A stretch of 64,000 nucleotides of DNA from Thermoanaerobaculia bacterium (GTDB lineage: Bacteria; Acidobacteriota; Thermoanaerobaculia; JALWYX01), in the NCBI GenBank assembly GCA_027078415.1, contig JALWYX010000034.1:60423-124422 (forward strand), given 5' to 3'. Below the pieces are notes generated by a model, which saw only the letters and a program-made list of their open reading frames with translations, searched no databases and was not told the origin of the DNA. Below, piece by piece: positions 28,864 through 54,046 of this stretch. Both the position numbers and the translations under genes were made by a program. How positions within the stretch are numbered: the first letter of the stretch is position 1; the number at the start of each line of letters is the position of its first letter.

Positions 28864-30198
28864 AACATTGCTATTAACAACTCTTTTCTTAAAATTGTTA
28901 TTTATTGCAGTCTGCTTATTAAGATTTTCAAACATTTCGTTACACTTAGAAGAAAGCACTTCACACAAGTTTCTATTCTCATCAAAATCGTTTCTCAAAT
29001 CGTAAAGTTCCTTCTCTAAACCACCTATAAATTTCCAGTTTCCTACAATCAGAGAAGCACTATAGTTACTTACGCTTCTAGACTCTGCTAATATAAAACG
29101 ATCACTATCAGAAAAACTTACAATAGTTGGGATTAAAGAGATTCCTTGAAAAACTATCTCTTTTTTATCTATTCCTAAAATATCTAACAAAGTAGGTGTA
29201 ACATCTATAAGAGAAACATTTGTAGGTATCTTTTTAGTTCCAACTTTAGGTATATAGATAAACAGAGGAACATGTAACGTTTCATTGTAAAGTTGAGAAT
29301 GTAAAAAGTTACCATGTTCACCAAATTCTTCACCATGGTCCGAAGTAAAAACTACTACCGTTTTAGGAAATTTATCGATAACTTCTTTAAGTAAAGGCGC
29401 AATTTTCTCAAGGGTATATCTGACTAGAGCATCGTATAAAGAAATAAGTCTGCGTACATCAAGTTCGTTAGACAGATTAAATTGGTTCCAAAACCTATCT
29501 CGTATCTCAGGAAAACTGATAATCGATGAATTCAATTTTCTGAATTCTTTCCAGCTTACCACGAAATTGTTTTTATCTTTCCAAAAGATATCTAACCCAT
29601 CCTCCGGTAAAAGGTAAGGATCGTGCGGACCGTAAGTATGGAAAAAAAGAAAAAAAGGTTCCTTTGCATCGTTTAACCATGCTAAAGCTTCTTTTACATA
29701 ACCCCATCTATCGTAACGTTTAGAAGGTTGTCCTTTATTCAGATAAAAGTCAAAACCTCTGTTAAAGCCAAAAATGCCTGATACGTTTCCTCCGCCGTGA
29801 AATCCTACCGTAGTATACCCTGCATCTTTAAGTATCTCTGCTATAGTGGGTAGGTTACCGTTTATAACTGTTTGTTTACGAAAGTAACGTGTTATATTTC
29901 TAACTCCATGTATTTCAGGATAAACACCTGTAAACAAAGACGCGTGGGAAGGAGCTGTAAAGGGTGATGGTGCAAAAGCTCTTTCGAAAATTACACTTTT
30001 TTTTACAAAAAAATCTATCACAGAAGAAGTATCTCTAAAGTAGCCATATTGCGACATATGCTTCGCTGCAAGGGTATCTACAGATACTATAACTACATTG
30101 CATCTTCTACATTCTATTTCCTCGGAACTTCTACAATTCCACAAAAGAAAACTAAAGATAACCAAGAACTTCCAGCTCTTTTTTAAGATCATCGTCAA
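28852..30198 (-). CDS. Sulfatase-family (alkaline-phosphatase superfamily) lipoprotein S1, non-canonical nucleophile
   Basis: VIVSVDTLAAKH metal-site motif. FTAPSHASLFTGVYPEIHG in place of CxPxRxxxLxTGxYPxxHG. TSDHGEEFGEHG metal motif. Signal peptide. Confidence 0.75.
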   Translation of the reverse strand: MTMILKKSWKFLVIFSFLLWNCRSSEEIECRRCNVVIVSVDTLAAKHMSQYGYFRDTSSVIDFFVKKSVIFERAFAPSPFTAPSHASLFTGVYPEIHGVRNITRYFRKQTVINGNLPTIAEILKDAGYTTVGFHGGGNVSGIFGFNRGFDFYLNKGQPSKRYDRWGYVKEALAWLNDAKEPFFLFFHTYGPHDPYLLPEDGLDIFWKDKNNFVVSWKEFRKLNSSIISFPEIRDRFWNQFNLSNELDVRRLISLYDALVRYTLEKIAPLLKEVIDKFPKTVVVFTSDHGEEFGEHGNFLHSQLYNETLHVPLFIYIPKVGTKKIPTNVSLIDVTPTLLDILGIDKKEIVFQGISLIPTIVSFSDSDRFILAESRSVSNYSASLIVGNWKFIGGLEKELYDLRNDFDENRNLCEVLSSKCNEMFENLNKQTAINNNFKKRVVNSNVLSR

Positions 30199-31588
30199 TC
30201 TCTAAAACTTTTCCTTTACCACCACCGCTAACGCTACTCAATATCTCTTTTAGCATCTCTTGCAGTAAATCAACAATCCCCGGGTGTATAGAACTTACAT
30301 CTTTTTTTTCTTTAGGGTCGGTTTTTAGGTTGAAAAGTAGGCGTTTATCCTCACCCCTAAGGATAAACTTAAACAAGCTTTTGTCCACTACAGCTACAGA
30401 ATCTGGACCGTAAGCAGGTGATTCTATGAAGACTAACTCTTTTTTTTCGCAAAACCCCTCCTCTAAAAAATTCGCACCTCTCCATCTACCAACTTTAGGC
30501 AGGTTCAAAATTGCGGCCAATGTAGGCATTATATCTATGTGACTTACTATGCAGTTTACATTTCTTCTGTTTATACCTTTCCCACCAATCACTATAACAC
30601 TACGGACAAGCTCTTCGAACATAGTATGCCCGTGACCTATACCGTAAATATTCCGCGGATCGTCTTTCCAACGCCACTGTAGATCTACATGATCCCAAAA
30701 TTCTTCTCCATGGTCTGTAGTAATTAAAAAGATAAAATTATCAGCTATTTTACTTCTCAAAAATAGGAAGAGACGCCTTATTTCACTGTCTACATACCTA
30801 AGTGTAGCATCGTAAAGCTTTATTTTATTACTCTTGTATTCGATAAACTCTTGGTCCGCAAAGTTAAAAATCTCACCAAACCTCCAACCAGCATACTTTT
30901 TGGCGTCATCTATTGCAAAAAGCTTCACAAACTCCTGAGGTGGTTCCAAAGGATGGTGTGGATCCATATACTGAATGTACAGGAAAAACGGTTGCTCAAC
31001 CTTATCAACAGCATCTATAGCAAGATCTGTGAGTTTCCTAGCGGAGACTCTTTTAGAAAAGTGAAAATCCGTAGCAGGAGCAAAATTTTTATTCAAATAG
31101 GGATTAGCGGAAAAAAATAGTGAACTGTAACCGTATTTTTTAAAATACTCGGTTGCTAAAACCACCTCTTCCAAAGGTTGTCTACTCTTATCTTTTATAC
31201 CCAACCAGCGCATCTTCCCTCTCTCACCAACACCTGCTCCATGTTCCGAAGGATACAGAGAAGATAGTATAGAAGCAACAGACGGAACTGTCCAATTAGA
31301 ATGGGAATATACACGTTCAACTATCACAGAATTGGCGGCGATAAAATCTATATTGGGAGTCGTATCTCTCATATAGCCCATAAAAGAAAAATGATCGTAC
31401 CTAGCAGTATCTATTACAACAACTATTACATTTGAAGGTCCCTCTTTCTCTTTACTACTTTCGGAGGGTTTGTGGCAGGATAGTAAAAAAAATGGAAAAA
31501 ATAAATAGAAAAGGAGGTGGAAAAATCCACCTCCTTTCCTAAGAACTTTTCTAGATCTTTTACGGCATTCTATAAGCCTCAAATTCAT
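30152..31588 (-). CDS. Sulfatase-family lipoprotein S2, non-canonical nucleophile
   Basis: Lipobox LLSC. VVVIDTARYDHF. WTVPSVASILSSLYPSEHG. TTDHGEEFWDH. C-terminal tail ...LKKELEVLGYL. Confidence 0.75.
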   Translation of the reverse strand: MNLRLIECRKRSRKVLRKGGGFFHLLFYLFFPFFLLSCHKPSESSKEKEGPSNVIVVVIDTARYDHFSFMGYMRDTTPNIDFIAANSVIVERVYSHSNWTVPSVASILSSLYPSEHGAGVGERGKMRWLGIKDKSRQPLEEVVLATEYFKKYGYSSLFFSANPYLNKNFAPATDFHFSKRVSARKLTDLAIDAVDKVEQPFFLYIQYMDPHHPLEPPQEFVKLFAIDDAKKYAGWRFGEIFNFADQEFIEYKSNKIKLYDATLRYVDSEIRRLFLFLRSKIADNFIFLITTDHGEEFWDHVDLQWRWKDDPRNIYGIGHGHTMFEELVRSVIVIGGKGINRRNVNCIVSHIDIMPTLAAILNLPKVGRWRGANFLEEGFCEKKELVFIESPAYGPDSVAVVDKSLFKFILRGEDKRLLFNLKTDPKEKKDVSSIHPGIVDLLQEMLKEILSSVSGGGKGKVLEIDDDLKKELEVLGYL

Positions 31589-32201: not shown

Positions 32202-32266
32202 AACCTTACTTACCTCCTCTTTTTAGGTACTTTCACATTATAATACATAACTCTTCACCAGCGCAA

Positions 32267-33658
32267 TTAAGAATGCTCGTCTAATATCTTATCTGCTTTG
32301 TTTATAGCTTCTTTTAACTCCTCACTTTTCAAAGACGCTTCTTTCTTAATAATCTCTAGAAGATCTTTTTTAAGAGAATCTATAATACCTTTTCTATCCT
32401 CCAACGTAACCGATCTATCCAACTTGTAGAGATTACTCTTACCAGAAGAGAACGAAAAACTTAGGAAAAAAGGCAAATTAATTATAACAAACCTATCAAA
32501 TAGAGTGGAATCATATTCAATACCAACGACTTTTCGTGCAGCAAAAGCTGAAAGTGCACTTCGTTCATCCCTTAAAAGTGGAAGGAAACTTTTTCCATCT
32601 ATATCGGAAAATAGATCTACTCCTAAATAATCTTCTATAAAAGCGGCAATATCTGCATGAGACACCAGAGCATCTACTTTTTTACCCTTAAATTCAGCGT
32701 TTGGGAACCTTATAACCAAAGGAATTTTAGCAACAGACGGAGACAATTGATAATGACTTAAACTTCCGTACTCACCAAACTCTTCCCCATAATCGGCTGT
32801 AAAAATAACAACAAATTTCTCTAACCAACCATCTTCCCTCAACCACCCAAAAAAATCTCCCAATCTCTTATCTAAATAGTCCACCTGGGCCTTGTAAACA
32901 GTTTTCAGAGCAGCAAGAGCATCTTTAGAAAGTTTTCTTGTCCTGTAAAATTGAAGCCATTTATCCGCACACATACCTTTGAAACAAAACATATCCTCTT
33001 TGATTTTCAATTTCTCCTTTAACGATGGAGGTAAAAAATAAGGTAATTTATTACCATTAGCTGGCGGATCAGGAGCGAGATCACTAATTTGCATAAATAT
33101 GAACAAAGGATCGCTTCTATTTTCATGGAAATCGATTATCCTGACAGTTCTATCAACTATTGAGTCCACATGTATAAACTCACGTTCAGAATCCCTGTAA
33201 ACCGTAAAACCACCTATAAGACCAGATTCTGGACTCAAAAAAGGAGTCGAATAAAAACCGACTGTTTTATACTGAAGATCTAAAAGTTTATGAAAAAACT
33301 GTCTCACATAATTGTTCGATCCCTCAGGAATAGAATTTATAATGCCATGGCGCAAAGGACTAAGTCCAGTAAATAAAGTTACATGTACAGGTAAAACATG
33401 ATTAATTTGAGTATAGAAGTTAGTAAACTCCACACCTTCACTAACCAAAGACTTATATACAAAAGTATTCTTGGCATAATCGAAACTGAACGAGCTAACA
33501 GAAATAAGCAATATATTAGGGTACTCTTCTACTTTTCCAAAAACGTCTAATGATGAAGGAATTACAGTAGATGAACTATTTTCCTTGCTATCTTGGGGAA
33601 AAATGTTACAACCGCTCAAAAATATTAAACTAATGAGAAATAAGCCTTTCAATTTCAT
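32267..33658 (-). CDS. Sulfatase-family lipoprotein S3 with degenerate active site (probable pseudo-enzyme)
   Basis: Lipobox LSGC. Metal motifs degraded (ISVSSFSFD instead of DTxRxD; TADYGEEFGEYG instead of DHGEEFGEHG). Val at the nucleophile position (HVLPVHVTLFTG). Confidence 0.65.
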   Translation of the reverse strand: MKLKGLFLISLIFLSGCNIFPQDSKENSSSTVIPSSLDVFGKVEEYPNILLISVSSFSFDYAKNTFVYKSLVSEGVEFTNFYTQINHVLPVHVTLFTGLSPLRHGIINSIPEGSNNYVRQFFHKLLDLQYKTVGFYSTPFLSPESGLIGGFTVYRDSEREFIHVDSIVDRTVRIIDFHENRSDPLFIFMQISDLAPDPPANGNKLPYFLPPSLKEKLKIKEDMFCFKGMCADKWLQFYRTRKLSKDALAALKTVYKAQVDYLDKRLGDFFGWLREDGWLEKFVVIFTADYGEEFGEYGSLSHYQLSPSVAKIPLVIRFPNAEFKGKKVDALVSHADIAAFIEDYLGVDLFSDIDGKSFLPLLRDERSALSAFAARKVVGIEYDSTLFDRFVIINLPFFLSFSFSSGKSNLYKLDRSVTLEDRKGIIDSLKKDLLEIIKKEASLKSEELKEAINKADKILDEHS

Positions 33659-35099: not shown

Positions 35100-36488
35100 T
35101 TACAAATACCCCAAGGCTTTTAACTCTTCTTCTACATCTCTATCGAAAGAGTAAAATCTAGCTCTAGGCCAAGCACCATAAATTCTGTCTCTTTTTATCA
35201 TAAGTCTAATAAGTTCTTCTTTTACAGAATTTTTCAACATAGCAGCGTTTCTCTTATCTATCTCGGCAATGTCATGCAACTCCTTAGGATCCTTCATAAG
35301 GTTAAATACCTTAACCCTATCAGTCCTAGGATCGTATTTAACAGAGTAAGGAAAATCTATTATAAAAAAACTCCACCTGTTGTATACATGGGCAGTACCT
35401 ACAATTTTCCTTTTAACCTGATTTTTACTGAGAAGTGAAAATAGAGAAAGTCCATCAAAGGCAACCGGGTATTGCAAACCTAAATAATCTAAGAAAGTAG
35501 GAACTATATCAGGTAGCCAAACCGGTGTATCTACTATCTTAGGAGCATCGTTGTCAGGAGTTATAAGCATCATGGGTATAGCTATTGTTTCGATGAATGG
35601 TTGTGAATGACCAAAATATTTATGTTCCTTAAACTCCTCACCATGATCCGAAAAGATAATAATTATAGAGTTTGAGAATAGATTCCATTTCTCAAACAAA
35701 TCGAAAAGCTTCGCTAACTGGCTGTCAAGAAAGCGTACACCTCTTCTATAGATTTCTTCCACCAATTCAACCTTTTCCGGTTTAAGTGGAATAGCTTCTT
35801 CCCTTACAAGCCGTAACCAGCTATCAGCACATCTGTTGTACCTACAAAAGGTACCTTCTTTTATAGGTAGATCCTTTCTATATGAAGGAGGAGAGTAGTA
35901 AGGTAACGTGTTCCCGTCTCTTCCTTGAGGATCAGAATGAGCATCCATAAAATGGATAAAGGCAAAGAAAGGAACTTTTTCCTCAACTGCTGCTCCCAGA
36001 TAATTGGAAACCTCCTCTAATATAGCTTCCGAAGGAACAAGTTTAAACCGTATTGGAATAAAAACGTCAAATCCTTTGTGGAATCCACCTTCTCGACCCA
36101 AAAGAGCATTAGAATGTATAGCAATGGTTGTGTAACCTTTACTTTTTAAAATTTCAGCTATAGTAGGTATGGAAGGCGGTAAAGCTCCAACTTTTACTTC
36201 CAATATAGAATGTACAATCGAAGACATACCAGTAAAAGCAGACATATGCGAAGGAACCGAGTAATGAGCTGTTGAGAATGCATTCCTGAAAACTATCCCT
36301 TTACGTTCCTCAAAAATTCTCTTTATATTGGGCATATCCAAACGAGGACTCCCTACAAGCTCACCCCAGCAATCACGCCTTACAGTATCCAAAGATATCA
36401 ATATAACGTTCTTCTTTATCTCAGACCTACATCCAAATAACAAAACCAAAAATAACAAAACCACTTTCCTTCTCATCACGCGATCCAA
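35100..36488 (-). CDS. Sulfatase-family lipoprotein S4, non-canonical nucleophile
   Basis: Lipobox LLFGC. ILISLDTVRRD. YSVPSHMSAFTG. FSDHGEEFKEH. C-terminal tail ...EEELKALGYL. Confidence 0.75.
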   Translation of the reverse strand: MDRVMRRKVVLLFLVLLFGCRSEIKKNVILISLDTVRRDCWGELVGSPRLDMPNIKRIFEERKGIVFRNAFSTAHYSVPSHMSAFTGMSSIVHSILEVKVGALPPSIPTIAEILKSKGYTTIAIHSNALLGREGGFHKGFDVFIPIRFKLVPSEAILEEVSNYLGAAVEEKVPFFAFIHFMDAHSDPQGRDGNTLPYYSPPSYRKDLPIKEGTFCRYNRCADSWLRLVREEAIPLKPEKVELVEEIYRRGVRFLDSQLAKLFDLFEKWNLFSNSIIIIFSDHGEEFKEHKYFGHSQPFIETIAIPMMLITPDNDAPKIVDTPVWLPDIVPTFLDYLGLQYPVAFDGLSLFSLLSKNQVKRKIVGTAHVYNRWSFFIIDFPYSVKYDPRTDRVKVFNLMKDPKELHDIAEIDKRNAAMLKNSVKEELIRLMIKRDRIYGAWPRARFYSFDRDVEEELKALGYL

Positions 36489-36712: not shown

Positions 36713-38161
36713 TTATTTATATCCTAACGCCTCTATAGCTCTCTTTTCCATCCTATCCAGTTCATCCAAAAATTGAGGTTCAGTGACAGCAAGTAACTTT
36801 TTACGCTTCTCTAGTTTAACACTTATCTCAAGATCCAATCTTTTTTTCAAGTTATCAAGCAAATCCTTAAAAGATTTGTCGCTAGCCAAATTATTCTGTT
36901 CCATTCTATCGCTACTCAAGTCAAAAAGTTCTACCAACCCATCATCTTTAATAATCAGATGATAAGGATAAACAATCATAGATCTAAAGTTCAAATTTTC
37001 CTTTTTATGTCCTAGAATAGCAACATCGCGTTTGGGCGTTATACTCTCTATCCAAGGTATCAAACTTTCCCCATCCAACTTTAGGGGAAAATCGTATGTA
37101 ATATTTAGGTAATCCAATATGGTAGGCAAAATATCTTCATGCCCTACAGGTATCTCTATCACCTTTCCTGCCCATCTATTTTTAGGAAACTTTATCAAAA
37201 GAGGAACATGAATATTTTCTACGTAAGGTCTATTGTGTAAAAAAGAACCGTGCTCACCAAACTCTTCACCGTGATCGGCTGTTATTATTACAAACATATC
37301 ATCCAATAAACCTTCAGCATTCAAATATCCAAACAGATCTCCTAACCTCTCGTCTAAATAAACAGCTTGCGCTTCGTATAAACGTTTCATTTTTACAACA
37401 GTACTTTTAGGCAACTTAATGCCTTTTTTTACAACTTCTAACAACCATCTACTAGCACACAGCTCTTTCCAACAAAACTCGGACCTATCAACTTTTATAT
37501 CTTTTCTGTAGGGAAAATAAGAATAATAGGGCAGAAAATTTTCAACTCCCACCATATCTTTATCGAAATCTGAGTGCAGATCCATATAATGTGCAAAAAT
37601 AAATAGTGGACTATCTCCGTACCCCAACCGTGATCTTTCAGATAGAAGATAGGAGATAGAATCGTTTATTCTTTGAGCAAAAGTAAGTCCTCTACCTATA
37701 TCCATGTAAAAGTCAAATCCCTTAGCAAAACCATATCTAGGTCTTAGAAAATAGTTGTGGTAAAACCCAAATGTCCTATAACCGTGTGTTTTCAAAATTT
37801 GAGCGATAGTTGGTATATTTTGCAACAAAGCAGGACCTCGCTCAGCATAAATAACTCCATGAACATAAAAAGACAACCCTGTAAACATGGACATATGAGT
37901 TGGAAGTGTAAAACCTGTAGCAGCATAGACGTTTAAAAAATTTACACTCATATTACTGATATCTTGCAATCTAGGCATAAGAGAATTATCACGGAAAAAA
38001 TGCCACAGATCGGCTCTCATCGTATCTATGGAGATAAACAGAATATCGGGGAGTTTTCCACGAGTACTCTCTATCTCTTCTAATTGTTGCTCATTCATAT
38101 GCTCCGCAAAACATCCGTAAAAAAGAACCACAAAAACTAACAAACACCTCCGAACTCTCAT
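36713..38161 (-). CDS. Sulfatase-family lipoprotein S5, non-canonical nucleophile
   Basis: Lipobox LFYGC. LFISIDTMRAD. FTLPTHMSMFTG. TADHGEEFGEHG. C-terminal tail ...AIEALGYK. Confidence 0.75.
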   Translation of the reverse strand: MRVRRCLLVFVVLFYGCFAEHMNEQQLEEIESTRGKLPDILFISIDTMRADLWHFFRDNSLMPRLQDISNMSVNFLNVYAATGFTLPTHMSMFTGLSFYVHGVIYAERGPALLQNIPTIAQILKTHGYRTFGFYHNYFLRPRYGFAKGFDFYMDIGRGLTFAQRINDSISYLLSERSRLGYGDSPLFIFAHYMDLHSDFDKDMVGVENFLPYYSYFPYRKDIKVDRSEFCWKELCASRWLLEVVKKGIKLPKSTVVKMKRLYEAQAVYLDERLGDLFGYLNAEGLLDDMFVIITADHGEEFGEHGSFLHNRPYVENIHVPLLIKFPKNRWAGKVIEIPVGHEDILPTILDYLNITYDFPLKLDGESLIPWIESITPKRDVAILGHKKENLNFRSMIVYPYHLIIKDDGLVELFDLSSDRMEQNNLASDKSFKDLLDNLKKRLDLEISVKLEKRKKLLAVTEPQFLDELDRMEKRAIEALGYK

Positions 38162-39816: not shown

Positions 39817-39840
39817 TTTCTCAATTATAGGTGATAAACG

Positions 39841-40959
39841 ATGATAGAAAAAGTGGAAAAAGTGCTCGAAGAACTTCAAAAAATAGCTTTAGAAAAAATA
39901 AAAATCTTAGGTAAACCGATACCCAAAGGCGAACTATTTCTCACATTAAATATTGCACTTTCAGGATCACGTGAACACCTTCACAACGAAGCAATCAACT
40001 TAACAAAAATTATAGACGCTGAGATAAACGATCTTATAGCACATATGGAAATGCTTCCTGTGGGTAGGATACACTGCTTGAAGTGTAACACAGCCACCTG
40101 TGAACACTCTGCACCTACTAAAAGAAGAGAAGTGTTTGTAGGATATAAACCCAATGGTACTCCAGAGTTTAGAGACCTCACCCAAGCACTCCTAGATAAA
40201 GGGCATCCGCAGACCCACAGACTATTTGAAAAAAAACCACCTATTTTGGCTCTTGCTATAAAACCACAAAATTTATTCTCAAACTTGCTACCGGGCTTTA
40301 AACCGTGGGAATCTATGAGAATACACGGTGCTGTTATATGTGGATGGTTCATAGACAAAGAAGGAGAGAAAAACGGGATTACTTTCCTGCTGGTTTCCTC
40401 AGGTACCAAAAGATCGAGAAGAAAATTTTACTTGCATACTATAAACCTCCTAGCAGCAAAAGCGGAGTTAGATAAGTTGTTGCTTACAAACGGCACTTTC
40501 AGATGGGACCAACCTCTTCAATGGAGTAAGAAAATGTTAAAAATCATAGAAGCTGATCTAAGAAGCAATACTCTAACCAAAGCTTTTATCAAAAAGATCG
40601 AAGCTAGACTGAACGGTGTTCTTGACAACTTAGCGTTACGGTTAGAAAAAATAACTGAGAAGGAAACACATTATACAAAACATGCAGTAGAACGCAAATC
40701 GGCTAACAGACCTGTATCCCAAGCATTTTTGGACCTCAAAAGTGCAACTGTCGACTGGAGTTTCTACGATGATACTGAGAAAAGCATAGTAATAGTAGGA
40801 CCTAAGTCGAGAGTACACATATTTTCTCCCAACGGTAAACTGATAACTTCAATACGATACTCATCTGAAGCTATTCAGAGAAAGATAAGAAGCGGAAAAT
40901 GGCAAAGGATTTCTCTACAACAACTGAACGAATTAAAGAAAAATGCAATTAGGAATTAA
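39841..40959 (+). CDS. Hypothetical protein translationally coupled to a UbiB/ABC1 kinase
   Basis: 372-aa ORF with no recognised motif apart from a C-x2-C-x4-C-x-H cluster. TAATG overlap with the next gene. Confidence 0.5.
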   Translation: MIEKVEKVLEELQKIALEKIKILGKPIPKGELFLTLNIALSGSREHLHNEAINLTKIIDAEINDLIAHMEMLPVGRIHCLKCNTATCEHSAPTKRREVFVGYKPNGTPEFRDLTQALLDKGHPQTHRLFEKKPPILALAIKPQNLFSNLLPGFKPWESMRIHGAVICGWFIDKEGEKNGITFLLVSSGTKRSRRKFYLHTINLLAAKAELDKLLLTNGTFRWDQPLQWSKKMLKIIEADLRSNTLTKAFIKKIEARLNGVLDNLALRLEKITEKETHYTKHAVERKSANRPVSQAFLDLKSATVDWSFYDDTEKSIVIVGPKSRVHIFSPNGKLITSIRYSSEAIQRKIRSGKWQRISLQQLNELKKNAIRN

Positions 40960-45102: not shown

Positions 45103-45137
45103 CTGTGTACCGATTTGTTATAAAATCACAACTAACA

Positions 45138-45734: not shown

Positions 45735-46327
45735 CTCCAGATATACATCCAGTAGATAACCCATTAAAATTGTTCACTTCTCTATGGTACGGTGCTAAAA
45801 AGCTTGAAAAGTACGATCCAACCGCTGCAGCACTAGCTACCTCAGGTAAAAAAGGGCCAAGTGTCAGGATAGTACTTATAAAAGAGATTGTGGAAGAGGG
45901 AATTATATTTTACACGAATTACAACAGCAGAAAAGCGAAAGAGCTGCTTAGAGACCCTCGTTGCGCGCTGGTTTTATGGTGGCCTATTACAGGAATACAA
46001 ATAAGGATAGAAGGGAAGGCAGAAAAAATTGCTCCTGAACTTAACGATTCCTATTTTGTATCCCGTCCTAAAAGAAGTCAAGCAGCCGCTATAGTTTCAA
46101 AACAGAGCGAAATACTACACGACTATAACAACTTTGTACGTGAGGTAGAAAAAGTATATGAAGATATAAAAAATAAAGATATCAAAGCACCCTCCTATTG
46201 GGGAGGATTTGTAGTGATACCTGAGAGAATAGAGTTTTTCTACCATCACAGTTTCAGATTACATAAAAGATTCCTATACAGCAAAAGATCTGGAATTTGG
46301 CAATTTGAAGGAATGTTGTACCCTTAA
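45701..46327 (+). CDS. pdxH: Pyridoxamine 5'-phosphate oxidase
   Basis: RIVLIKEI...FYTNYNSRKAKEL...IEGKAEKI...SRPKRSQ...WGGFVVIPERIEFF, the classic PNPOx pattern. Confidence 0.85.
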   Translation: MGHQWFSKYSLTPDIHPVDNPLKLFTSLWYGAKKLEKYDPTAAALATSGKKGPSVRIVLIKEIVEEGIIFYTNYNSRKAKELLRDPRCALVLWWPITGIQIRIEGKAEKIAPELNDSYFVSRPKRSQAAAIVSKQSEILHDYNNFVREVEKVYEDIKNKDIKAPSYWGGFVVIPERIEFFYHHSFRLHKRFLYSKRSGIWQFEGMLYP

Positions 46328-47223
46328 ATCACCACACCCAAAGGTTTTCTTAAAACAATAATAAAAACTATCGTCCAAACGAAAAACACTATCAGCCAAT
46401 GAGTAGAAAAGAGATAAAAGTATCCTCCAAACAGAGAACTTCTATCTCCAAACTCTAGCAAAGGTATATACTTAGGCTCATAGTGTACTTTAACAAATCT
46501 AACAGGTACATTTTTTTCTATTGGGAACTCACTTGCATATAAAAGCATTTGACCTACATATAAACCAGGTTTAACAGTTGATAGAACGGCGTATTTATTA
46601 GGCAAATAGCTGATGCTTTTATCGATCTCATAAGGTCCCAACTTAATTTTTAAACCAAAAACTCCCTCTCTCTCAAACTCTACCCTAGTAAACAAAGTAT
46701 TACTTCGAGCCACCCATACCCAAGGAGTACCTTGCCTGATCCCTTCAGGTAAAACGAGAGATATTTCAGGTTTCCCTGTGGCAGGATCTAACTCTATCCC
46801 TGCAGCTTCCCAACCATCTTTAAGAACCACCTCTAAAGTAAGTTTTTTACCACTGAGATAGCCGTATCTTGAATCAAGATGAGGAAGCAAAAGCAGAAGA
46901 ATAGGAATTATAAAAATCATTGGAGGAAGGGAATAAAGTAAATACTTACCATTCGCTTTAAAAACGTTTAACTGTGCTCGCAATATTCTACTAAAGCTAT
47001 GATTATAAAGTCGCATTTCAAAAAGAGAAGCCCAGATAAGATCTTTAGTTTTCTCTAAAGCTTTTTGGTTGGAAGTCTTTTTAAAAATAATCAGCATAAC
47101 TCCAGATATAAAAGCAGTAAAAATCAGTAAAGTAACAAACGGAAACCTGCTAGCTAAAGGATCGTAAAGATACACAAAGCAGTACTCTACAATCAAATTT
47201 ATATAAGATAATACGGTTAGCAT
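46324..47223 (-). CDS. Hypothetical membrane protein (distal gene of the NPP operon)
   Basis: N-terminal and C-terminal TM helices with a large soluble middle. No motif recognised. Confidence 0.5.
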   Translation of the reverse strand: MLTVLSYINLIVEYCFVYLYDPLASRFPFVTLLIFTAFISGVMLIIFKKTSNQKALEKTKDLIWASLFEMRLYNHSFSRILRAQLNVFKANGKYLLYSLPPMIFIIPILLLLLPHLDSRYGYLSGKKLTLEVVLKDGWEAAGIELDPATGKPEISLVLPEGIRQGTPWVWVARSNTLFTRVEFEREGVFGLKIKLGPYEIDKSISYLPNKYAVLSTVKPGLYVGQMLLYASEFPIEKNVPVRFVKVHYEPKYIPLLEFGDRSSLFGGYFYLFSTHWLIVFFVWTIVFIIVLRKPLGVVI

Positions 47224-47421
47224 CTAAGATATATATCCCAACCCTTTTAATCTCTTCTTTATCTCTTCTTCGTCTTTAGCATCATCAAACTTGGCCAGTT
47301 CCTTTTCAAGTGCATGGGTAATAAACTCTTCCACCGACGCATAACCAGCCACCTCGGCTATTTTCTTTAATTTTTCAACAAGAGCTTTATCCAATTTAAC
47401 TTTCACTTTCCTACCGAACAT
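47224..47421 (-). CDS. Small ribbon-helix-helix (CopG/Arc-like) protein carrying the LGY C-terminal tail
   Basis: KVKVKLDKALVEKLKKIAE fits the RHH beta-alpha pattern. Ends ...EEEIKKRLKGLGYIS, matching the tails of S2, S4, S5 and NPP-C. Confidence 0.55.
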   Translation of the reverse strand: MFGRKVKVKLDKALVEKLKKIAEVAGYASVEEFITHALEKELAKFDDAKDEEEIKKRLKGLGYIS

Positions 47422-47423
47422 CT

Positions 47424-49346
47424 CTATTCACCTCCTCGTCTCTTATAAAGCGAGATTATAAAAGAAGACACTTCTTCCAAAGATTTGGGATACTCTTTCA
47501 TCTTTTTATTTGAAAAGAACACTCCAGGTACACTACCAGGATCCATACAATGATCTCCACTCCACTCATCCCTATTTATCTCTACCACTTCCTTACCAAA
47601 CCCTCCAATAGCAGTTTTATCGGAAGATCTATAGGTTTTAGCGTACCCAACTATCATATCTGGTCCTTTAGCAAGATACTCTCTATTAAACGTTCTCTCC
47701 GTTATATCGACTCTTGTAACAACTCGTTCTCCATTAAGAGGGTTCTCAAAAGCGAGTAACTTTTGCTTTATCTCTTCTAGAATCTTCATCTTCTCTTCGG
47801 GAGGAACTATACCGTGCTTTTCTCTACCTTTTACATTTATGTACAAACCGTTGAGACCTAAAGAGTAGGCCTTAGTTCCATTCCAATCTACATTAACAAA
47901 GTATCCGGGATCTCTAGCAAGAACGCTTTTATTTTTAACCTTTAGATAACCTTCCTCAAGCAACCAATTGTTAAGATTAACAGCGTACCTCCAACTGGTA
48001 AAACCGTGGTCAGAAAGGACTATCAAAGTATCATTCTCTTTCAAATTTTCCAACACAAACCCTATAAGTTCGTCAAACTTCCTGTAAAGGTCTGGAATAA
48101 CATGAGCATATTTACTATCTATTTTCTCGTTGTAAGCCGGATGTTCTGTATCTATAGCTCTCCACATTATATGAGATACCTGATCCAAGTTACCAAAGTA
48201 GTAAAAAAAGAAACCACCTTTAACTTGCGGCAAAATAATTTTGAACTGCTCTATAAGTTCATCTCCAGCGACCTTTGCTTGCTTTAAAAACTCATCTCGT
48301 GTAAATACACCTTCGGTTATAGCCTTGGTATCTTCAGGCATACCTTGCGTATAGAACCTACCTGTAACTCTCGCCAAATTTACAGAAAATTTCTCAGGTG
48401 TAGATATAGGTAAGATAGGATTGTAGGGATCGATGTTTACAGGTGAAGCGTAAAGCTCTAGCTCCGGACGCACGCTCCTTAAGTAAAAACGCACCATAGC
48501 AGGGAGCTTCTGGAGAGGAAGCAAATCAAAACTAAACGGAATCCACTCACTGAATTCACCAGGTTTAAGCACTACCGCAACGTTATCTATAACAACTGTA
48601 ACAACATCATCTATAGGATCTGGATATATAACAAATTTTTTCTTTACTGTAGGATCGTCTGTTAGTTCCGGGTCCAAAAAAGGATTTGGTGGACCGTAAA
48701 GATAAGCTTCTATTTTACCGTCCTCCTCGTAAACTTCGTATACCTCTCCTCCAGAGATCTCTTTACCTGCAAAAGCGAATAACCTAGTTGTATAAAAAGA
48801 GAAAGTTCCATAAGTACCAATCACATCGGGAGTCCCCATTCCCGATAACTCGAAAGAAGCAGTAGATGAAGGAGGAAAATTTGCAGGCATACGTAGTATA
48901 AAAGTCTTTATACCCGAGTTCTCAAGTTTTTCCCAAAATGGAACCCCATATCGTAGAAGTTCAACCTTACCAGAAGAGATAGGTAACCTGTATTTACCTA
49001 TAGAGAAATATTTACCCTCTACACTACGGCTAGTAGAAAGATAGGGAGTCATAGTATCAGGATTTCTATGGATAAAATCAAATATACCATGTCCACCAGG
49101 ATCTAGGCCGGTTATTACACTAGACCAAGCAACTGGGCTTTGAGGTGGAATTGAAGTAGCTAACGAAGAGAAACTACCCTCCTTAGCCAACCTCGCAAAA
49201 TTTGGCAGTTCACCAGTTTCCATAAGCTGCTTGGTTAAAGAATAATCCATACCATCAATTCCTATCACTATAACCCGTTTATATCTCTCCTTCACACAAC
49301 CAAAAATAACAAATAAGCAAGTAAAAAGAACGTACCTTCTTATCAT
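47424..49346 (-). CDS. NPP / type I phosphodiesterase-nucleotide pyrophosphatase-like lipoprotein (AP superfamily) A
   Basis: Lipobox IFGC. VIVIGIDGMD. SPVAWSSVITGLDPGGHGIFDF (NPP-like nucleophile loop). SDHGF. WSGDHCMD. Confidence 0.75.
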   Translation of the reverse strand: MIRRYVLFTCLFVIFGCVKERYKRVIVIGIDGMDYSLTKQLMETGELPNFARLAKEGSFSSLATSIPPQSPVAWSSVITGLDPGGHGIFDFIHRNPDTMTPYLSTSRSVEGKYFSIGKYRLPISSGKVELLRYGVPFWEKLENSGIKTFILRMPANFPPSSTASFELSGMGTPDVIGTYGTFSFYTTRLFAFAGKEISGGEVYEVYEEDGKIEAYLYGPPNPFLDPELTDDPTVKKKFVIYPDPIDDVVTVVIDNVAVVLKPGEFSEWIPFSFDLLPLQKLPAMVRFYLRSVRPELELYASPVNIDPYNPILPISTPEKFSVNLARVTGRFYTQGMPEDTKAITEGVFTRDEFLKQAKVAGDELIEQFKIILPQVKGGFFFYYFGNLDQVSHIMWRAIDTEHPAYNEKIDSKYAHVIPDLYRKFDELIGFVLENLKENDTLIVLSDHGFTSWRYAVNLNNWLLEEGYLKVKNKSVLARDPGYFVNVDWNGTKAYSLGLNGLYINVKGREKHGIVPPEEKMKILEEIKQKLLAFENPLNGERVVTRVDITERTFNREYLAKGPDMIVGYAKTYRSSDKTAIGGFGKEVVEINRDEWSGDHCMDPGSVPGVFFSNKKMKEYPKSLEEVSSFIISLYKRRGGE

Positions 49347-51343
49347 TGCTTCAACAAACTTTTACCATCTATAAACGCAGGAATAGGCACAGCGAACATA
49401 TCTAGTATAGTAGGAGCTAAATCGATTATATTGCACTCCTTACTCTGGAGTTTTAAATTTGTCAACATAATACCAGGAATAAGTTTAGGATCTATACAAT
49501 GATCACCGCTCCAGGCTTTCACATTATCTTCTACAATATCTCCTTTAACCACCCCTCTAGCACCATTCCAAGAAACACGGTAGCCTTTGTTATATCCAAC
49601 TATCAAATCTGGAGCATTATCAACATATCCACCCCAGTAACACTCGGAAGTATCGTAAACTTTGCTAATAACTTTCTCACCTTCATATTCTAAGTTCTCC
49701 AACTTCTTTATTATCTCTTTTTTGATCTTCTTAGCTTCATCTCCGGGATCTACTATTCCATGTGCTTCTCGACCTTTGATATTTAGATATATACCCGCTA
49801 ATCCAAGAGAGTAAGCAACCGTTCGAGACCAATCAACATCTCTAAGCCACTCCCTTTCACCGCTATATTTCTCTTTGACACACAGATAACCTTCCTGCAA
49901 CAGCCACGCGTTAAGGTTTATACCCTTTCTAAACGAGTTAAAGCCGTGATCTGAGATGACAAACACAAAATCCCCCTCCTTCATCTTTGCAAGGAGCTTA
50001 CCCAATATGCGGTCGTTATTACGGTATAACCTTTCTATAGCATCACTTTTTTTTCCTTTCGGATTTGCTGGATGATTATAATCTATATAACGCCAAAACA
50101 TATGTTGTATCCTATCGGTAGCATCGAAAACGGCAACCAATACTCCTTGATCCAAATCATCTAAAAGAGAAAAGAACTGCTCTTCTCTCTCTTTATCTAT
50201 ATCAAACACCATTTGCAAGAATGTATCGTCATCTATAACCTTCTCATTCAACGCCCAGGTATCCTCAGCTAAACCTAAAGTAGCGTATTTACCCAATTTA
50301 TAGCGTAAATAAGGAGCAAAATAATTTGGATGCGAAATAGGCATAGCAGGCCTTTCAGGATCTATATTCAAAGGAGTAGAGTAGAGAAATATATCATCTC
50401 CTTCCCTAAAGAAAAGAAGACGAGTTATCGCAGACACTTTAACACCGGGCAGAAGTCTATACCTAATATCAACCCATTCGCTCAACTTACCTTCCTTTAG
50501 AAACAGAGACTCCCTATTGAAATGTATGTAACAACCTTCATCGTACAGTTCTAACGTAAAAGGCAACTTAACCTCTTCTTGAGAGACCTTAAATATATTA
50601 GGTACTCCAGGAAACTCACCTCTGTACAAACCGTTCTTTACCTTTATAAGTCTCTTACGTATACCTCCTTCTTCAAATTTTCCATCTTCCTCGCTTGAGG
50701 AAAATAATATAAATGTACCCTGTGTTCCAAGAATATCAGGAACACTCATAGCGGAAAGTTCTACTCCAAAAAATTGATCCGGTGGAAAAGTAATAGGGAC
50801 CCTTAATATAGAACTCCATACACCGTACTCACCCAACGTTACCCAGAACGGCTTTGACTTACGCAACAATTTCAATTCAGGCTTACCTAGAGGAATCCTA
50901 TATTTTCCCACTCTTAAAAATCTACTAATATTACCTATTTTCGAAGAAGATATAACAGGAAGATAGCTCTTAGGATCTCTAGATAGAAAATCGTATATAT
51001 TATGTTTGCCCGGATTTGTTCCTGTGGAAAAGGAAGACCATGCAACAGGAGAAATAGCAGGTATGGTAGTCCCTAGTTCAACAAAACAACCTTCCTTAGC
51101 TAACTTAGAAAAATTGGGTAATATACCTTGATCCATAAATTTACGAGTAAGTTCAGGGTCTTGACCATCGAACCCTAAAACTATAACCCTTCTAGCTAAA
51201 GGTTTACCCTTTCTCTTTGGAAGGGTAAAATATCTATATAGTTTTTTAAATGGCCAGATAAGCAGCGACAAAATGGCAACTATGAGAGTTATAACAACCG
51301 CGAAAAGAGAAGAAACTAGGGCAAAGCCTGCCCCAGGTCCCAC
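49343..51343 (-). CDS. NPP / type I phosphodiesterase-like membrane-anchored protein B (start uncertain; ORF is open up to 51667)
   Basis: RVIVLGFDGQD. SPVAWSSFSTGTNPGKHNIYDF. SDHGF. WSGDHCID. One or two N-terminal TM helices. Candidate starts are GTG 51343 and ATG 51499/51559/51667; the longer forms overlap the divergent sulfotransferase gene. Confidence 0.65.
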   Translation of the reverse strand: MGPGAGFALVSSLFAVVITLIVAILSLLIWPFKKLYRYFTLPKRKGKPLARRVIVLGFDGQDPELTRKFMDQGILPNFSKLAKEGCFVELGTTIPAISPVAWSSFSTGTNPGKHNIYDFLSRDPKSYLPVISSSKIGNISRFLRVGKYRIPLGKPELKLLRKSKPFWVTLGEYGVWSSILRVPITFPPDQFFGVELSAMSVPDILGTQGTFILFSSSEEDGKFEEGGIRKRLIKVKNGLYRGEFPGVPNIFKVSQEEVKLPFTLELYDEGCYIHFNRESLFLKEGKLSEWVDIRYRLLPGVKVSAITRLLFFREGDDIFLYSTPLNIDPERPAMPISHPNYFAPYLRYKLGKYATLGLAEDTWALNEKVIDDDTFLQMVFDIDKEREEQFFSLLDDLDQGVLVAVFDATDRIQHMFWRYIDYNHPANPKGKKSDAIERLYRNNDRILGKLLAKMKEGDFVFVISDHGFNSFRKGINLNAWLLQEGYLCVKEKYSGEREWLRDVDWSRTVAYSLGLAGIYLNIKGREAHGIVDPGDEAKKIKKEIIKKLENLEYEGEKVISKVYDTSECYWGGYVDNAPDLIVGYNKGYRVSWNGARGVVKGDIVEDNVKAWSGDHCIDPKLIPGIMLTNLKLQSKECNIIDLAPTILDMFAVPIPAFIDGKSLLKQ

Positions 51344-51386
51344 GTAAGCAAAAGAAACGTTAGGAAAAAGGAGAAAAATAAACAAA

Positions 51387-52043
51387 ATGAACAGAACAAA
51401 AGAATATACACGCCCATTTTCGTTAACCAGAAAGCTACTTTTCGGGAAACCTATAATAGTGGTATCAGGATTACCCCGCTCAGGAACTTCAATGGCCATG
51501 AAAATGCTTCGTGATGGGGGATTAGAAGTAGTATCGGACAACAAGCGTAAAGCTGACATAGATAATCCAAAAGGATACTTCGAATATGAACCTGTCAAAG
51601 ATATCCACAGATCGGGGCAAAACCTGAAATGGCTAAAAAAAATACGAGGCAAAGGTATCAAAATCATCTCCTTCCTCTTACGTTATCTACCCGATAATAA
51701 CAATTACAACATAATATTTATGCAACGCGATCTCAACGAGATCTTAGTTTCTCAAGCCAAAATGCTTCATCGTAGGGGCGAAGAACACTCTATCCCTGAC
51801 GAAAAAATGATGGTTTTCTGGAAAGAACACCTCGAACAGATATTCTTTATAATGCACCATCGCCCCTCTTTTCGCTTTATAGTACTAGATTACCTAGACG
51901 TTATTCAAGACCCTCGAAGCGCAGCTAAAAAAATAGAATCTTTCCTCAATATAGACCTAGACATAGACAAAATGGCAGAAGCAGTTTCACCAGAACTTTA
52001 CCGAAACAGAAAAGAAAATTTAATAAAAAGCACAAAAGGTTAA
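51387..52043 (+). CDS. Small sulfotransferase-family protein (PAPS-dependent, Sulfotransfer_3/Stf0-like)
   Basis: 5'-PSB-like loop VVSGLPRSGTSM near the N-terminus. 3'-PB-like IIFMQRDLNEILVSQ. AGGAG RBS upstream of the ATG. Confidence 0.6.
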   Translation: MNRTKEYTRPFSLTRKLLFGKPIIVVSGLPRSGTSMAMKMLRDGGLEVVSDNKRKADIDNPKGYFEYEPVKDIHRSGQNLKWLKKIRGKGIKIISFLLRYLPDNNNYNIIFMQRDLNEILVSQAKMLHRRGEEHSIPDEKMMVFWKEHLEQIFFIMHHRPSFRFIVLDYLDVIQDPRSAAKKIESFLNIDLDIDKMAEAVSPELYRNRKENLIKSTKG

Positions 52044-52501: not shown

Positions 52502-54046
52502 TTACGGAAGGTATCCCAAGCTTTTTAAAACCTTGAGGGTACTTTCATCTAGGTATTTATTACTTTTTTCCGTCTTTACTCTAAGAGGATAGCTATCTAT
52601 AAATCTAGGAGGGTATTTTTTTATAAAGTGATCATTTATAACCGATAAAAAACCTTTACCATTTTTTTTAGGCACTGGATATCCTTGCAAATATAAAATA
52701 AGGGGATTTAAATCCAATATGGATAATGTGACGTTTCCCTTTTTAAAAGGGGGCCCTACAGCCAAAAATACTCCCGGAGGAGCACTGATATGGTGGAGGT
52801 TATCAAAATCGAATCCATGATCTGAAACTACTATAACAGCTACATTTGACAAACCTTCTACAACTTCCTTTAGAAATCTTTCGAAATCCTTATAACGTTT
52901 AATTATAGGTTCTTTGATACCTCTTCTATAGTCTCTACCACAGTAGTGGTGAAATTTATCTACAGAAACAAACTCTGTAGCTAAAAGATCATAGTCACCA
53001 GTCAGAAAAACCTGCCACAAAAGATCTTCTTCATAAGAAGATAAAAAATCCCTACACTTATCTGAAATAGCACTTTTACTCGACAGGTCATTTAACCTAT
53101 ACTTGTAAACATCATAATTTTCAGTTTCCAAGTTTAGATGAAAATTGGTAATAATAGTTCTGTTAGTTAGTAACCATTTAACAACTGCATAACTACGAGT
53201 AGATCCTACAATCTCCCAAAATGGCGGATACAAACTGTTTTCCAAATTTGAAAGTCTAACAATTTCTTGTTTGAAAATCATCTTTATAAAAGGAACTACA
53301 AAAAAATTGAGCCCTACATGTAAAGGAAAAGAAGATATATGCGATTGCAAACCTGGCAAATCGAAAAATATAAAATGTTCTATTCCATGTTTATCCGGTG
53401 TTACACCAGTAGCCATAGAACTCCAAACTGCTGCAGAAAGAGCAGGATAAACGGTTGTTAGTTCTCCGTAAGTAGCGTTTTGTAGAAGAGATCTTATAAA
53501 CGTGAGTTCTCCCGAGAGTGCAAGGTTAAAGAGCAGATGAGGGTCTAACCCATCACTTACAAGTAGAATAGTTCTAACTGGTACTCTGCTTTCTACCTCA
53601 AAATGCACTTCTGAAACTCTTTCTGTCTGTGTCACATAAGGAAACAGTAAACCTCTTATTACAATAAGAGAAGCTACAACTCCTAAAACATAGCTAATAT
53701 ACTTGAATCTACTTATAAAAAAAGCGATAACCAGCGCTGCACAAATAAACACAACTAGGTATCCGATTTTACGAGAAAAAAGTAAATTACTAAGGAAGTA
53801 AGTGTTTATTTTTAATTCGGGTAAGAGCAAAGTGTATACCAATACAAATGCTCCAATTATATAGTGGACAAAGCCATCTTTTCTTAAAAATTTTCGTAAT
53901 GAACTTTCTATTATCGCTATAACAAGTAGAGGAATAAACAGGTAGAGCAAAAACAGTACTCTATCTTTGATAGTTAACCAAGAATTTAACGAAATAGTTA
54001 GAAAAAATACTACACTTATAAAGAGATAAACCGTTGAAGTTATCAC
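52502..54046 (-). CDS. NPP / type I phosphodiesterase-like protein C with about 5-TM N-terminal membrane domain
   Basis: About 150-aa polytopic N-terminus. ILLVSDGLD. LSAAVWSSMATGVTPDKHGIEHF. VSDHGFD. C-terminal tail ...LKVLKSLGYLP. Confidence 0.7.
   Translation of the reverse strand: MITSTVYLFISVVFFLTISLNSWLTIKDRVLFLLYLFIPLLVIAIIESSLRKFLRKDGFVHYIIGAFVLVYTLLLPELKINTYFLSNLLFSRKIGYLVVFICAALVIAFFISRFKYISYVLGVVASLIVIRGLLFPYVTQTERVSEVHFEVESRVPVRTILLVSDGLDPHLLFNLALSGELTFIRSLLQNATYGELTTVYPALSAAVWSSMATGVTPDKHGIEHFIFFDLPGLQSHISSFPLHVGLNFFVVPFIKMIFKQEIVRLSNLENSLYPPFWEIVGSTRSYAVVKWLLTNRTIITNFHLNLETENYDVYKYRLNDLSSKSAISDKCRDFLSSYEEDLLWQVFLTGDYDLLATEFVSVDKFHHYCGRDYRRGIKEPIIKRYKDFERFLKEVVEGLSNVAVIVVSDHGFDFDNLHHISAPPGVFLAVGPPFKKGNVTLSILDLNPLILYLQGYPVPKKNGKGFLSVINDHFIKKYPPRFIDSYPLRVKTEKSNKYLDESTLKVLKSLGYLP

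Follow-up and report, generated by a model that had tools for sequence, protein, structure and literature searches.

What does a short peptide do that recurs at the very end of proteins with unrelated folds? This question is raised by a 64,000-nucleotide (nt) stretch of the genome of a Thermoanaerobaculia bacterium (contig JALWYX010000034.1, positions 60,423 to 124,422; hereafter, the window), in which five proteins encoded within 24 kb of one another end in the tripeptide LGY plus one or two residues. Three are sulfatase-like proteins (S2, S4 and S5), one is an NPP-like phosphodiesterase (NPP-C) and one is a 65-residue protein of the ribbon-helix-helix (RHH) type. An earlier note on this DNA had reported a common tail on these four hydrolases and the small protein and had taken it for a modular signal. 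Here we find that the tail marks one functional neighbourhood, made up of Thr/Ser-nucleophile sulfatase-like and NPP-like enzymes of the alkaline phosphatase (AP) superfamily and of accessory proteins encoded beside them. It is a real, ancient and widespread C-terminal module that appears to be undescribed.

A shared C-terminal tail in the window and beyond

The five tails are encoded as follows.

30155..30193, minus strand: LGY tail of S2 (DDLKKELEVLGYL), end of the sulfatase-like lipoprotein gene 30152-31588
35103..35141, minus strand: LGY tail of S4 (RDVEEELKALGYL), end of the sulfatase-like lipoprotein gene 35100-36488
36716..36754, minus strand: LGY tail of S5 (RMEKRAIEALGYK), end of the sulfatase-like lipoprotein gene 36713-38161
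47227..47268, minus strand: LGY tail of the 65-residue RHH protein (EEIKKRLKGLGYIS), end of gene 47224-47421
52505..52546, minus strand: LGY tail of NPP-C (ESTLKVLKSLGYLP), end of gene 52502-54046

All five C-termini agree exactly with those read in the earlier note, in which S2 ends in DDLKKELEVLGYL, S4 in EEELKALGYL, S5 in EKRAIEALGYK, NPP-C in TLKVLKSLGYLP and the small protein in EEIKKRLKGLGYIS. The hosts also fall into the different families proposed there: S2, S4 and S5 match the Pfam Sulfatase model PF00884 (E 6e-37 to 2e-32), NPP-C has five N-terminal hydrophobic segments followed by a Phosphodiest domain (PF01663, E 3e-23), and the 65-residue protein matches RHH_1 PF01402 with 24.2 bits against a cut-off of 20.5.

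Chance is excluded as the source of the tail within the window. For the 56 plausible window proteins, composition predicts 0.047 proteins that end in LGY plus zero to two residues, against five observed (Poisson P = 1.9e-9), and when the last 60 residues were shuffled in 20,000 rounds the count of C-terminal LGY never exceeded two. The tripeptide occurs seven times in total in these proteins, five times at the extreme C-terminus, one or two residues before the stop. A comparable excess was found in 80 related loci, which are those kept from a scan of GTDB representatives, were retrieved around homologs of the RHH gene and do not include the genome of the window itself: their open reading frames (ORFs) of at least 150 residues hold 21 C-terminal LGY tripeptides versus 0.84 expected, and permuted tripeptides stay at expectation. 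The tail-coding DNA of the window genes is only 39–61% identical and uses different synonymous codons, which places the conservation at the protein level, with selection acting on the peptide. The same figures rule out recent gene conversion as the origin of the similarity.

To describe the tail position by position, we aligned 113 tails of S4 homologs on their Gly-Tyr pair, with Gly as position 0. Position −12 is hydrophobic, −11 is Ser, Thr or Asp, −9, −8 and −6 are Glu and −5 is Arg or Gln; Leu at −4 (111/113) and at −1 frames Lys or Arg at −3 and Ala or Ser at −2; Gly at 0 and Tyr at +1 are each present in 113/113, and Leu, Ile or Val at +2 and a polar residue at +3 precede the stop. The whole element of approximately 16 residues has the consensus h-[ST]-x-E-E-x-E-x-L-[KR]-[AS/G]-L-G-Y-[LIV]-polar, with Asp also found at the [ST] position, and in each of 337 tails of sulfatase-like and RHH proteins that conform to it in general terms, the aromatic position is Tyr. 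We read the tail as an N-capped, Gly-C-capped amphipathic helix of approximately 11 residues with one Leu/Leu/Tyr/aliphatic face. The AlphaFold2 (AF2) model of S4, built on an 81-sequence alignment (mean predicted local distance difference test score (pLDDT) of 93), has its last canonical helix at 412–437 and predicts a tail helix at 450–459 with pLDDT of about 80, with one beta-bridge in the linker between them. In the same alignment, L456, L459, G460 and Y461 are at least 90% conserved, on par with the catalytic residues. For the RHH protein (120 sequences, mean pLDDT 92), helices are predicted at 12–25, 30–45 and 51–61, the last being the tail helix (pLDDT ~94).

The tail is tethered by a mostly polar linker of variable length, and two sulfatase-like paralogs in the window do without it:

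28852..30198, minus strand: S1, tail-less sulfatase-like paralog, an internal control
32267..33658, minus strand: S3, sulfatase-like paralog without LGY, with an acidic amphipathic helix at its end and Val at the nucleophile position

No solved sulfatase aligns past position 456 of the 471-position S4 profile, that is, into the tail region. The variable linker, the tail-less paralogs S1 and S3 and the end of the structural alignments together indicate that the tail is an add-on outside the common fold, and they speak against its being just the last helix of a common domain, the outcome that the earlier note had named as fatal to its proposal. The modular form claimed there, an element common to unrelated catalytic families and an RHH protein, was right; its reading as a sorting tag is taken up below.

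Tails are also common outside the window. Of the best 120 S4 homologs, at 25–35% identity, 105 end in LGY plus five residues at most, and the remainder mostly in IGY or MGY, or in LGY followed by an acidic extension; 6 of 11 NPP-C homologs end in L[KR]xLGY[IL]. A metagenome scan with the exact peptide pattern ERLKALGY[ILVM], which samples one tail variant only, returned 122 matches, 99 of which stand 0–6 residues before a stop. The terminal matches comprise 33 small RHH proteins, about 35 sulfatase-like and 9 NPP-like proteins, 3 lipoproteins resembling tetratricopeptide repeat (TPR) proteins and a few others; internal matches lie in GlmS, a LarE-like protein, NrdH, PG_binding and a core helix of sulfatases, where helix-LGY-strand is an ordinary element. 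Tail carriers are distributed over Acidobacteriota, Gemmatimonadota, Myxococcota, Planctomycetota and many uncultured lineages. No model in Pfam or NCBIfam covers the tail, the RHH subfamily or mem299, the membrane protein encoded next to it, and a literature search on the tail motif, on the GPGAG N-terminal motif of NPP-B and on the cassette composition described below found nothing relevant.

Accessory carriers are the small RHH protein and, sometimes, an adenosine 5′-phosphosulfate (APS) kinase, a TPR-like lipoprotein or an ASST-like propeller, the last two adjoining the RHH cassette (L012 and L149, and L007 and L015, respectively). Apart from a urease fusion, all non-AP carriers that we found adjoin AP-superfamily genes. 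The APS kinase of locus L098 keeps its native end and continues into a linker and EEAAVAARLRDLGYLG, a true appended tail. We rejected the apparent tail of 3′-phosphoadenosine 5′-phosphosulfate (PAPS) synthases (L043, L075 and L076; LHLEKLGYIGA), which matches, position by position, the native C-terminus of APS kinases of solved structure (LEHEGYL, LESQGFL, LEKLGYI), where the Tyr position varies among Y, F, L and I. Tails also occur side by side: L083 has three adjacent tail-bearing genes, and in L029, L031 and L034 tandem tailed sulfatases directly follow the RHH and mem299 genes. In L098 (12.4 kb), the RHH protein, APS kinase, a sulfatase-like protein and an NPP are all tailed and none has a recognisable signal peptide; the neighbours of these genes encode a tail-less NPP, a PHP-domain protein, two methyltransferases, a radical-SAM protein and a Wzx-type flippase. 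The urease gamma-beta fusion (L184, 130-873, minus strand) has a 20-residue C-terminal extension ending in ENKIAERLKALGYIE.

Host enzymes, the RHH protein and their cassettes

S1–S5 all match PF00884, with E from 8e-18 to 7e-43, and the solved folds nearest to S4 are choline sulfatase and phosphonate monoester hydrolase (TM-score about 0.69, 16–19% identity). The nucleophile motif reads S-V-P-S-H in S4, T-L-P-T-H in S5, T-V-P-S-V in S2, T-A-P-S-H in S1 and V-L-P-V-H in S3; the subfamily consensus, T-L-P-S-H, is shared by hundreds of homologs, with T77 and H81 at least 90% conserved. Where formylglycine sulfatases carry C/S-x-P/A-x-R, S1–S5 have a motif of the type T/S-x-P-S-H, with His or Val in place of the Arg. 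Judged by these motifs, the five proteins belong to the family of the sulfatase fold but cannot be enzymes of the formylglycine type, and S3 may lack catalytic activity. S2, S4 and S5 each have one N-terminal hydrophobic segment and a lipobox, that of S2 being, by eye, LLSC.

The RHH gene and its neighbours form a cassette, to which the following genes of the window belong.

46324..47223, minus strand: mem299, membrane protein gene abutting the RHH stop codon, assigned by synteny and by a profile match to PDB 5c8j
47224..47421, minus strand: the whole RHH-tail gene, core of the conserved cassette, with more than 4,300 homologs and the same neighbours in about 80 loci of several phyla
47424..49346, minus strand: NPP-A, tail-less NPP-like lipoprotein, directly upstream of the RHH gene
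49343..51499, minus strand: NPP-B, tail-less NPP-like protein
51387..52043, plus strand: ST218, PAPS-type sulfotransferase, divergent from NPP-B

NPP-A, NPP-B and NPP-C match PF01663 (E from 3e-23 to 3e-35) and contain the NPP motif with its putative Ser/Thr nucleophile (P-x-x-[ST]-x-[PA]-[AV]-W...T-G), namely PPQSPVAW, PAISPVAW and PALSAAVW. Homologs of NPP-A have lipoprotein or Tat signal peptides, and NPP-A is a candidate periplasmic receptor for tails. The N-terminus of NPP-B is highly conserved among homologs (L003–L082) and consists of a signal-like segment ending A-x-A, the motif Y-[IV]-G-P-G-A-G, a transmembrane (TM) helix and a K/R-rich stretch. This arrangement is predicted to form an N-out/C-in anchor that would leave the catalytic domain in the cytoplasm, and NPP-B is a candidate cytoplasmic receptor for the RHH tail. 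Of the canonical start codons ATG, GTG and TTG, the only one in frame and upstream of the signal-like segment is the ATG at 51499; a start there implies a 113-nt head-to-head overlap with the sulfotransferase gene, across its conserved GLPRSGTS loop. The distance between the landmark motifs of the two genes is 118 nt in the window and typically 180–570 nt in related loci that have both.

The model of the RHH protein superimposes on the RHH domain of NikR (root-mean-square deviation of 0.9 Å over 42 columns; Foldseek probability 0.99, E = 0.2), and its matches to the RHH domains of NikR, Arc and ParD cover the first 42–49 residues only. Its more than 4,300 homologs are 63–67 residues long; the closest are 70–80% identical across phyla and come from metagenome-assembled genomes (MAGs) of Acidobacteriota, Gemmatimonadota, Myxococcota, Methylomirabilota, Planctomycetota and Gammaproteobacteria. 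Within 120 homologs R-L-x-G-L-G-Y is near-invariant, with R57, L58, G60, G62 and Y63 invariant. A profile search of 1.84 billion representatives gave 682 clusters at 50% identity; the tail is kept in 112 of the 149 clusters inspected, and many of the others look truncated or frameshifted, so that it is nearly universal among intact members of the family. Calmodulin matches to this profile ("EEEIREAF...GNGYIS") were set aside as chance EF-hand similarity (E above 0.04), as were the fusions P0265 (NPP-A-RHH) and P0375 (RHH-mem299), which look like frameshift or read-through artefacts. An in-frame NPP-B-RHH fusion, P0351, is a single case to which we give little weight.

A k-mer search of 48 sulfotransferase/NPP-B intergenic regions found no repeat operator for the RHH protein. 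Scanning 51 such regions did reveal the promoter-like motif TATACTACA in 14, in one orientation only. This motif, C-TA[TG]ACTACA-[AC], is AT-rich amid GC-rich DNA, always points towards NPP-B and in some cases has an ATG after it; it resembles a −10 element, not a repeat operator. The 14 loci are L003, L004, L007, L015, L021, L022, L027, L038, L039, L064, L069, L078, L079 and L081.

The gene order of this cassette (cassette 1; window 46324-52043, L003–L082) is a usually divergent sulfotransferase, followed by NPP-B, NPP-A, RHH and a membrane protein of 280–300 residues. Essentially all 80 loci agree with the window, some with a single NPP gene, and the same order recurs in MAGs of at least six phyla; we found no description of it. 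The mem299 profile matches the archaeal YidC/DUF106-like protein Mj0480 (PDB 5c8j, E = 1.3e-11), including TM1, coiled coil and TM2, and mem299 has an additional domain of ~130–150 residues between TM2 and a final TM segment. For ST218, the nearest solved relatives by profile are sulfotransferases (SULTs) acting on phenols and tyrosine esters and the PAPS-binding loop of tyrosylprotein sulfotransferase (TPST), both weak matches (E about 1e-5). A Flavobacteriaceae protein (P0125, 866 residues), in which an NPP domain, TPR repeats and a Sulfotransfer_3 domain are naturally fused, ties NPP-like enzymes to the sulfotransferase family of the cassette; the fusion ends in LYRNK, comparable to the conserved LYRNR end of the cassette sulfotransferase.

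A second architecture, cassette 2, was found on metagenome contigs (L103, L108, L113, L118, L131, L135, L152, L183 and L203). It comprises a sulfotransferase, which is not always present (L103 has no ST218-like gene beside RHH2), a divergent RHH protein with the same tail (RHH2), an ATP sulfurylase of 382–390 residues, a tail-less cytoplasmic NPP of about 460 residues and an APS kinase. Both architectures follow one rule: NPP genes no more than 6 kb from an RHH-tail gene lack the tail (0/129 have it), and NPPs without an RHH gene in the retrieved DNA have it in 10 of 11 cases. Sulfatase-like genes flank the cassette in about 14 loci; 16 of these 23 genes have a terminal tail (one, in L029, with four residues after LGY), and five of the other seven hold the motif internally, ahead of TPR repeats.

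Further genes of the window lie around the tailed ones. A polysaccharide-synthesis cluster (18628-28863), with a Bac_transf priming transferase, several GT1 and GT2 genes and a GT2-GT1 fusion, adjoins the sulfatase-like cluster. Amid the tailed sulfatase-like genes, an M32 (Taq-type) carboxypeptidase gene (33630-35099, minus strand) begins one base past the S4 stop; M28 peptidases are encoded at 38503-39879 and 1114-2778, and an M16 peptidase is present too. We considered these peptidases as tail processors and rejected them, since none recurs near tails in the 80 related loci; the placement of the M32 and M28 genes is probably coincidental. Directly upstream of NPP-C, 54052-54357 (minus strand) encodes a 101-residue protein with no family assigned, a homolog of which (L028, 1292-2041) adjoins a tailed sulfatase-like gene.

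What the tail may bind

The tail depends neither on one compartment nor on a free C-terminus. Tailed proteins without a signal peptide include the RHH protein, the NPPs P0127, P0130 and P0132, and the APS kinase, sulfatase-like protein and NPP of L098; the three P-numbered NPPs and the sulfatase-like protein and NPP of L098 begin directly at the first catalytic strand. Other carriers are lipoproteins and multi-TM proteins with external domains. In fusions of AP enzymes to TPR arrays (L011, L014, L019, L044, L080, P0128 and P0129), the motif stands between the catalytic module and the array, 176–346 residues from the end, and in L114 it lies well upstream within an ORF that runs off the contig. 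Its internal position in the AP-TPR fusions means that a free C-terminus is not required, which weakens a mechanism of the PDZ or carboxylate-clamp kind. Ligands of PDZ domains, Tsp or TPR carboxylate clamps have a fixed register and a free carboxylate; here zero to seven residues follow the Tyr, exactly two in 84 of 130 tails, besides the internal cases. The recognition peptide for a PDZ/TPR-type partner that the earlier note had considered survives as partner recognition, with the PDZ or clamp mechanism weakened. The partner evidence points to AP-superfamily enzymes, especially the tail-less NPPs, over a separate PDZ or TPR protein.

A conserved amphipathic helix on a tether, attached to unrelated but co-encoded folds and independent of compartment and terminus, fits a docking or oligomerisation helix. 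We therefore favour a tail that connects AP-superfamily enzymes with partner proteins, whether in cis or in trans, and we credit this reading about as much as we doubt it. Docking on the AP module is preferred because the non-AP carriers adjoin AP genes and the RHH-adjacent NPPs are tail-less, and the independence of compartment fits a partner on both sides of the membrane, with NPP-B predicted to be cytoplasmic and NPP-A exported. Most enzymes would carry the LGY helix at the end of their own catalytic module, where it would dock in cis or be exchanged between subunits, and the tail-less NPPs of the sulfotransferase cassettes would depend on one provided in trans. For NPP-B or the 460-residue NPP, in the cytoplasm, its source would be the dimeric RHH protein; for NPP-A, in the periplasm, it would be tail-bearing lipoproteins. 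In this way the tail would hold together and co-regulate several enzymes as one system linked to PAPS-dependent sulfation and to the modification of polysaccharides, and the RHH protein would become coupled to the occupancy of the enzymes.

Several observations weigh against docking on AP enzymes. The contrast between 0/129 and 10/11 tailed NPPs is confounded, both by the choice of loci for an RHH gene or a tail, with flanks of no more than 10 kb, and by the fact that the tail-less NPPs form separate subfamilies. L083 encodes three tailed enzymes and lacks a tail-less NPP within 10 kb; around the tailed urease fusion, the retrieved DNA showed no gene of the AP family. Helix-LGY-strand strings arise within unrelated folds, so part of the similarity could be a generic helix-capping solution, and the confident AF2 helices could equally mean that the tail packs in cis on each host domain.

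These last points lead to an alternative that we consider unlikely, in which the tail is a convergent structural cap, a helix with a Gly cap and a hydrophobic anchor that packs on its own domain and implies no common partner or function. Look-alike strings are indeed intrinsic to APS kinase, GlmS, the LarE-like protein, NrdH, PG_binding and the sulfatase core helix, the AF2 helices and the beta-bridge in the S4 linker suggest docking in cis, and the motif keeps its place at the end of the AP module in proteins that go on into TPR repeats. Yet unrelated folds of the same operons share identity over 8–13 residues, which take in RLK[AG]LGY[IL] and the acidic stretch; few proteins other than AP enzymes and RHH proteins have the motif at their end; in L098 the tail of the APS kinase comes after the enzyme's own native terminal helix; and the invariance of the Tyr contrasts with the Y/F/L/I found at the intrinsic APS-kinase position; S1 and S3, moreover, fold without a tail. 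Of similarly low probability is a dedicated receptor outside the AP superfamily, such as TPR repeats, the cytoplasmic coiled coil of mem299, a sulfotransferase or another hub. Many AP enzymes of these loci bear C-terminal TPR arrays; in the window the RHH stop codon directly adjoins the mem299 start, and almost every locus has the two genes side by side; the Mj0480 match of mem299 spans TM1, coiled coil and TM2; and a sulfotransferase directly adjoins RHH2 in several loci. Each of these candidates is, however, absent from some tail-containing loci: cassette 2 has no mem299, L103 has no sulfotransferase beside RHH2, and no TPR protein was found among the window genes scanned. A single receptor would also need to act in both cytoplasm and periplasm, and the TPR fusions retain an LGY motif of their own.

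The invariant Tyr could itself be the functional residue, O-sulfated by the cassette sulfotransferase, nucleotidylated or phosphorylated, with the RHH-tail protein as carrier or substrate; we rate this as improbable, somewhat more so than the two preceding explanations. It would account for a Tyr without exception behind an acidic run, for an RHH-tail gene embedded with sulfotransferase, ATP sulfurylase, APS kinase and NPP genes, for tails on arylsulfatase-family and ASST-family proteins, for the weak likeness of ST218 to phenol/tyrosine-ester SULTs and the TPST loop, and for a cross-phylum identity of the RHH protein (70–80%) that is unusual for a plain repressor. Known tyrosine-sulfation sites, such as those of TPST and RaxST substrates, have acidic residues adjacent to the Tyr, whereas in the tail the two residues just before the Tyr are Leu and Gly, basic residues are near and the acidic ones stand at −6 to −9 in the alignment numbering. 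Most tailed sulfatase-like proteins, furthermore, are exported, and there is no PAPS outside the cell; a packed helix accounts for the conserved Leu pattern better than an exposed acceptor does; and RHH2 of L103 has no ST218-like gene beside it. A yet more doubtful version is a bacterial protein-tyrosine-sulfate relay, in which the Tyr of the RHH tail is O-sulfated or esterified by the neighbouring sulfotransferase and then handled by AP enzymes; in sulfatase-like, NPP-like and ASST-like enzymes, the tail would serve as an acceptor or pseudo-substrate built into the protein. Least probable is the sorting, secretion or degradation tag of the earlier note, which a sortase-like enzyme or a tail-specific or PDZ protease would recognise. 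Tails do show a strong preference for the extreme C-terminus, with the two-residue register after Tyr predominating, and most sulfatase-like carriers have lipoprotein-type N-termini. Against both the sorting and the regulated-degradation readings stand the tails on proteins without a signal peptide and on the cytoplasmic-type RHH protein, the internal motifs in TPR fusions and in proteins with long acidic extensions, and the lack of any TM segment or of any hydrophobic or basic anchor after the motif. Among the labelled neighbours of tailed genes we identified none for a sortase, exosortase, rhombosortase, PDZ or Tsp protein, although the earlier note had suggested looking for a partner gene of this kind, and the M32, M28 and M16 peptidases of the window do not recur in the related loci.

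Comparison with known systems and significance

In Mnt-type RHH repressors, known from structural work on Arc and Mnt, the C-terminal helix after the RHH domain forms a tetramerisation bundle. The small protein is built alike, with an RHH domain of ~45 residues, a linker and a single amphipathic C-terminal helix, predicted at 51–61. Its helix, however, has only ~11 residues and ends in an invariant L-G-Y-[IL]-S that also occurs on AP-superfamily enzymes, and the protein is 70–80% identical across phyla. C-terminal extensions contribute to oligomer interfaces in choline sulfatase and phosphonate monoester hydrolase, the two closest solved folds to S4 (TM-score about 0.69). The LGY tail differs from these extensions: it aligns to no solved sulfatase, the sequences are unrelated, the tail is found on non-sulfatase folds as well, and the S4-type nucleophile motif is T/S-x-P-S-H instead of C/S-x-P-x-R.

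General parallels are the paxillin LD motif, LxxLL boxes and the docking domains of polyketide synthases and non-ribosomal peptide synthetases, which, like the LGY tail, are short acidic amphipathic helices on flexible linkers, have Leu residues at i, i+3/4 and i+7, and recur on several proteins of a single pathway. Unlike them, the LGY tail is bacterial, has a Gly-Tyr cap, is strongly biased to the C-terminus and is found in both cytoplasm and periplasm. With LPXTG, PEP-CTERM, GlyGly-CTERM, PGF-CTERM, the T9SS C-terminal domain, C-terminal degrons and PDZ ligands it has in common a conserved C-terminal motif on many exported hydrolases; in contrast to them, it lacks a hydrophobic helix or basic tail, occurs also on cytoplasmic proteins and tolerates an internal position. 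The earlier note was correct that it is none of the described sorting signals: most tails have 0–3 residues after LGY, no TM helix and no basic tail. The nearest string is the native C-terminal helix of APS kinase (...L-E-x-x-G-Y/F-L), very similar in sequence and position and encoded in the same sulfation operons. That helix is intrinsic to the fold and present in solved structures, whereas the LGY tail has a linker and an invariant Tyr.

The tail is carried by thousands of uncharacterised "sulfatase" and "alkaline phosphatase family" proteins and delimits a Thr-nucleophile subfamily, whose members should not be called formylglycine sulfatases in annotations. Through the tail, these AP enzymes are linked to a highly conserved small RHH protein and to two cassettes of sulfotransferase, PAPS and NPP genes. 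At ~16 residues, the tail peptide offers a cheap way to search for the partner proteins, and also the substrate, of an envelope-modification system that is widespread and probably related to sulfation. Should the tail indeed be a transferable docking tag that functions on either side of the membrane, synthetic biology would gain a useful part as well.

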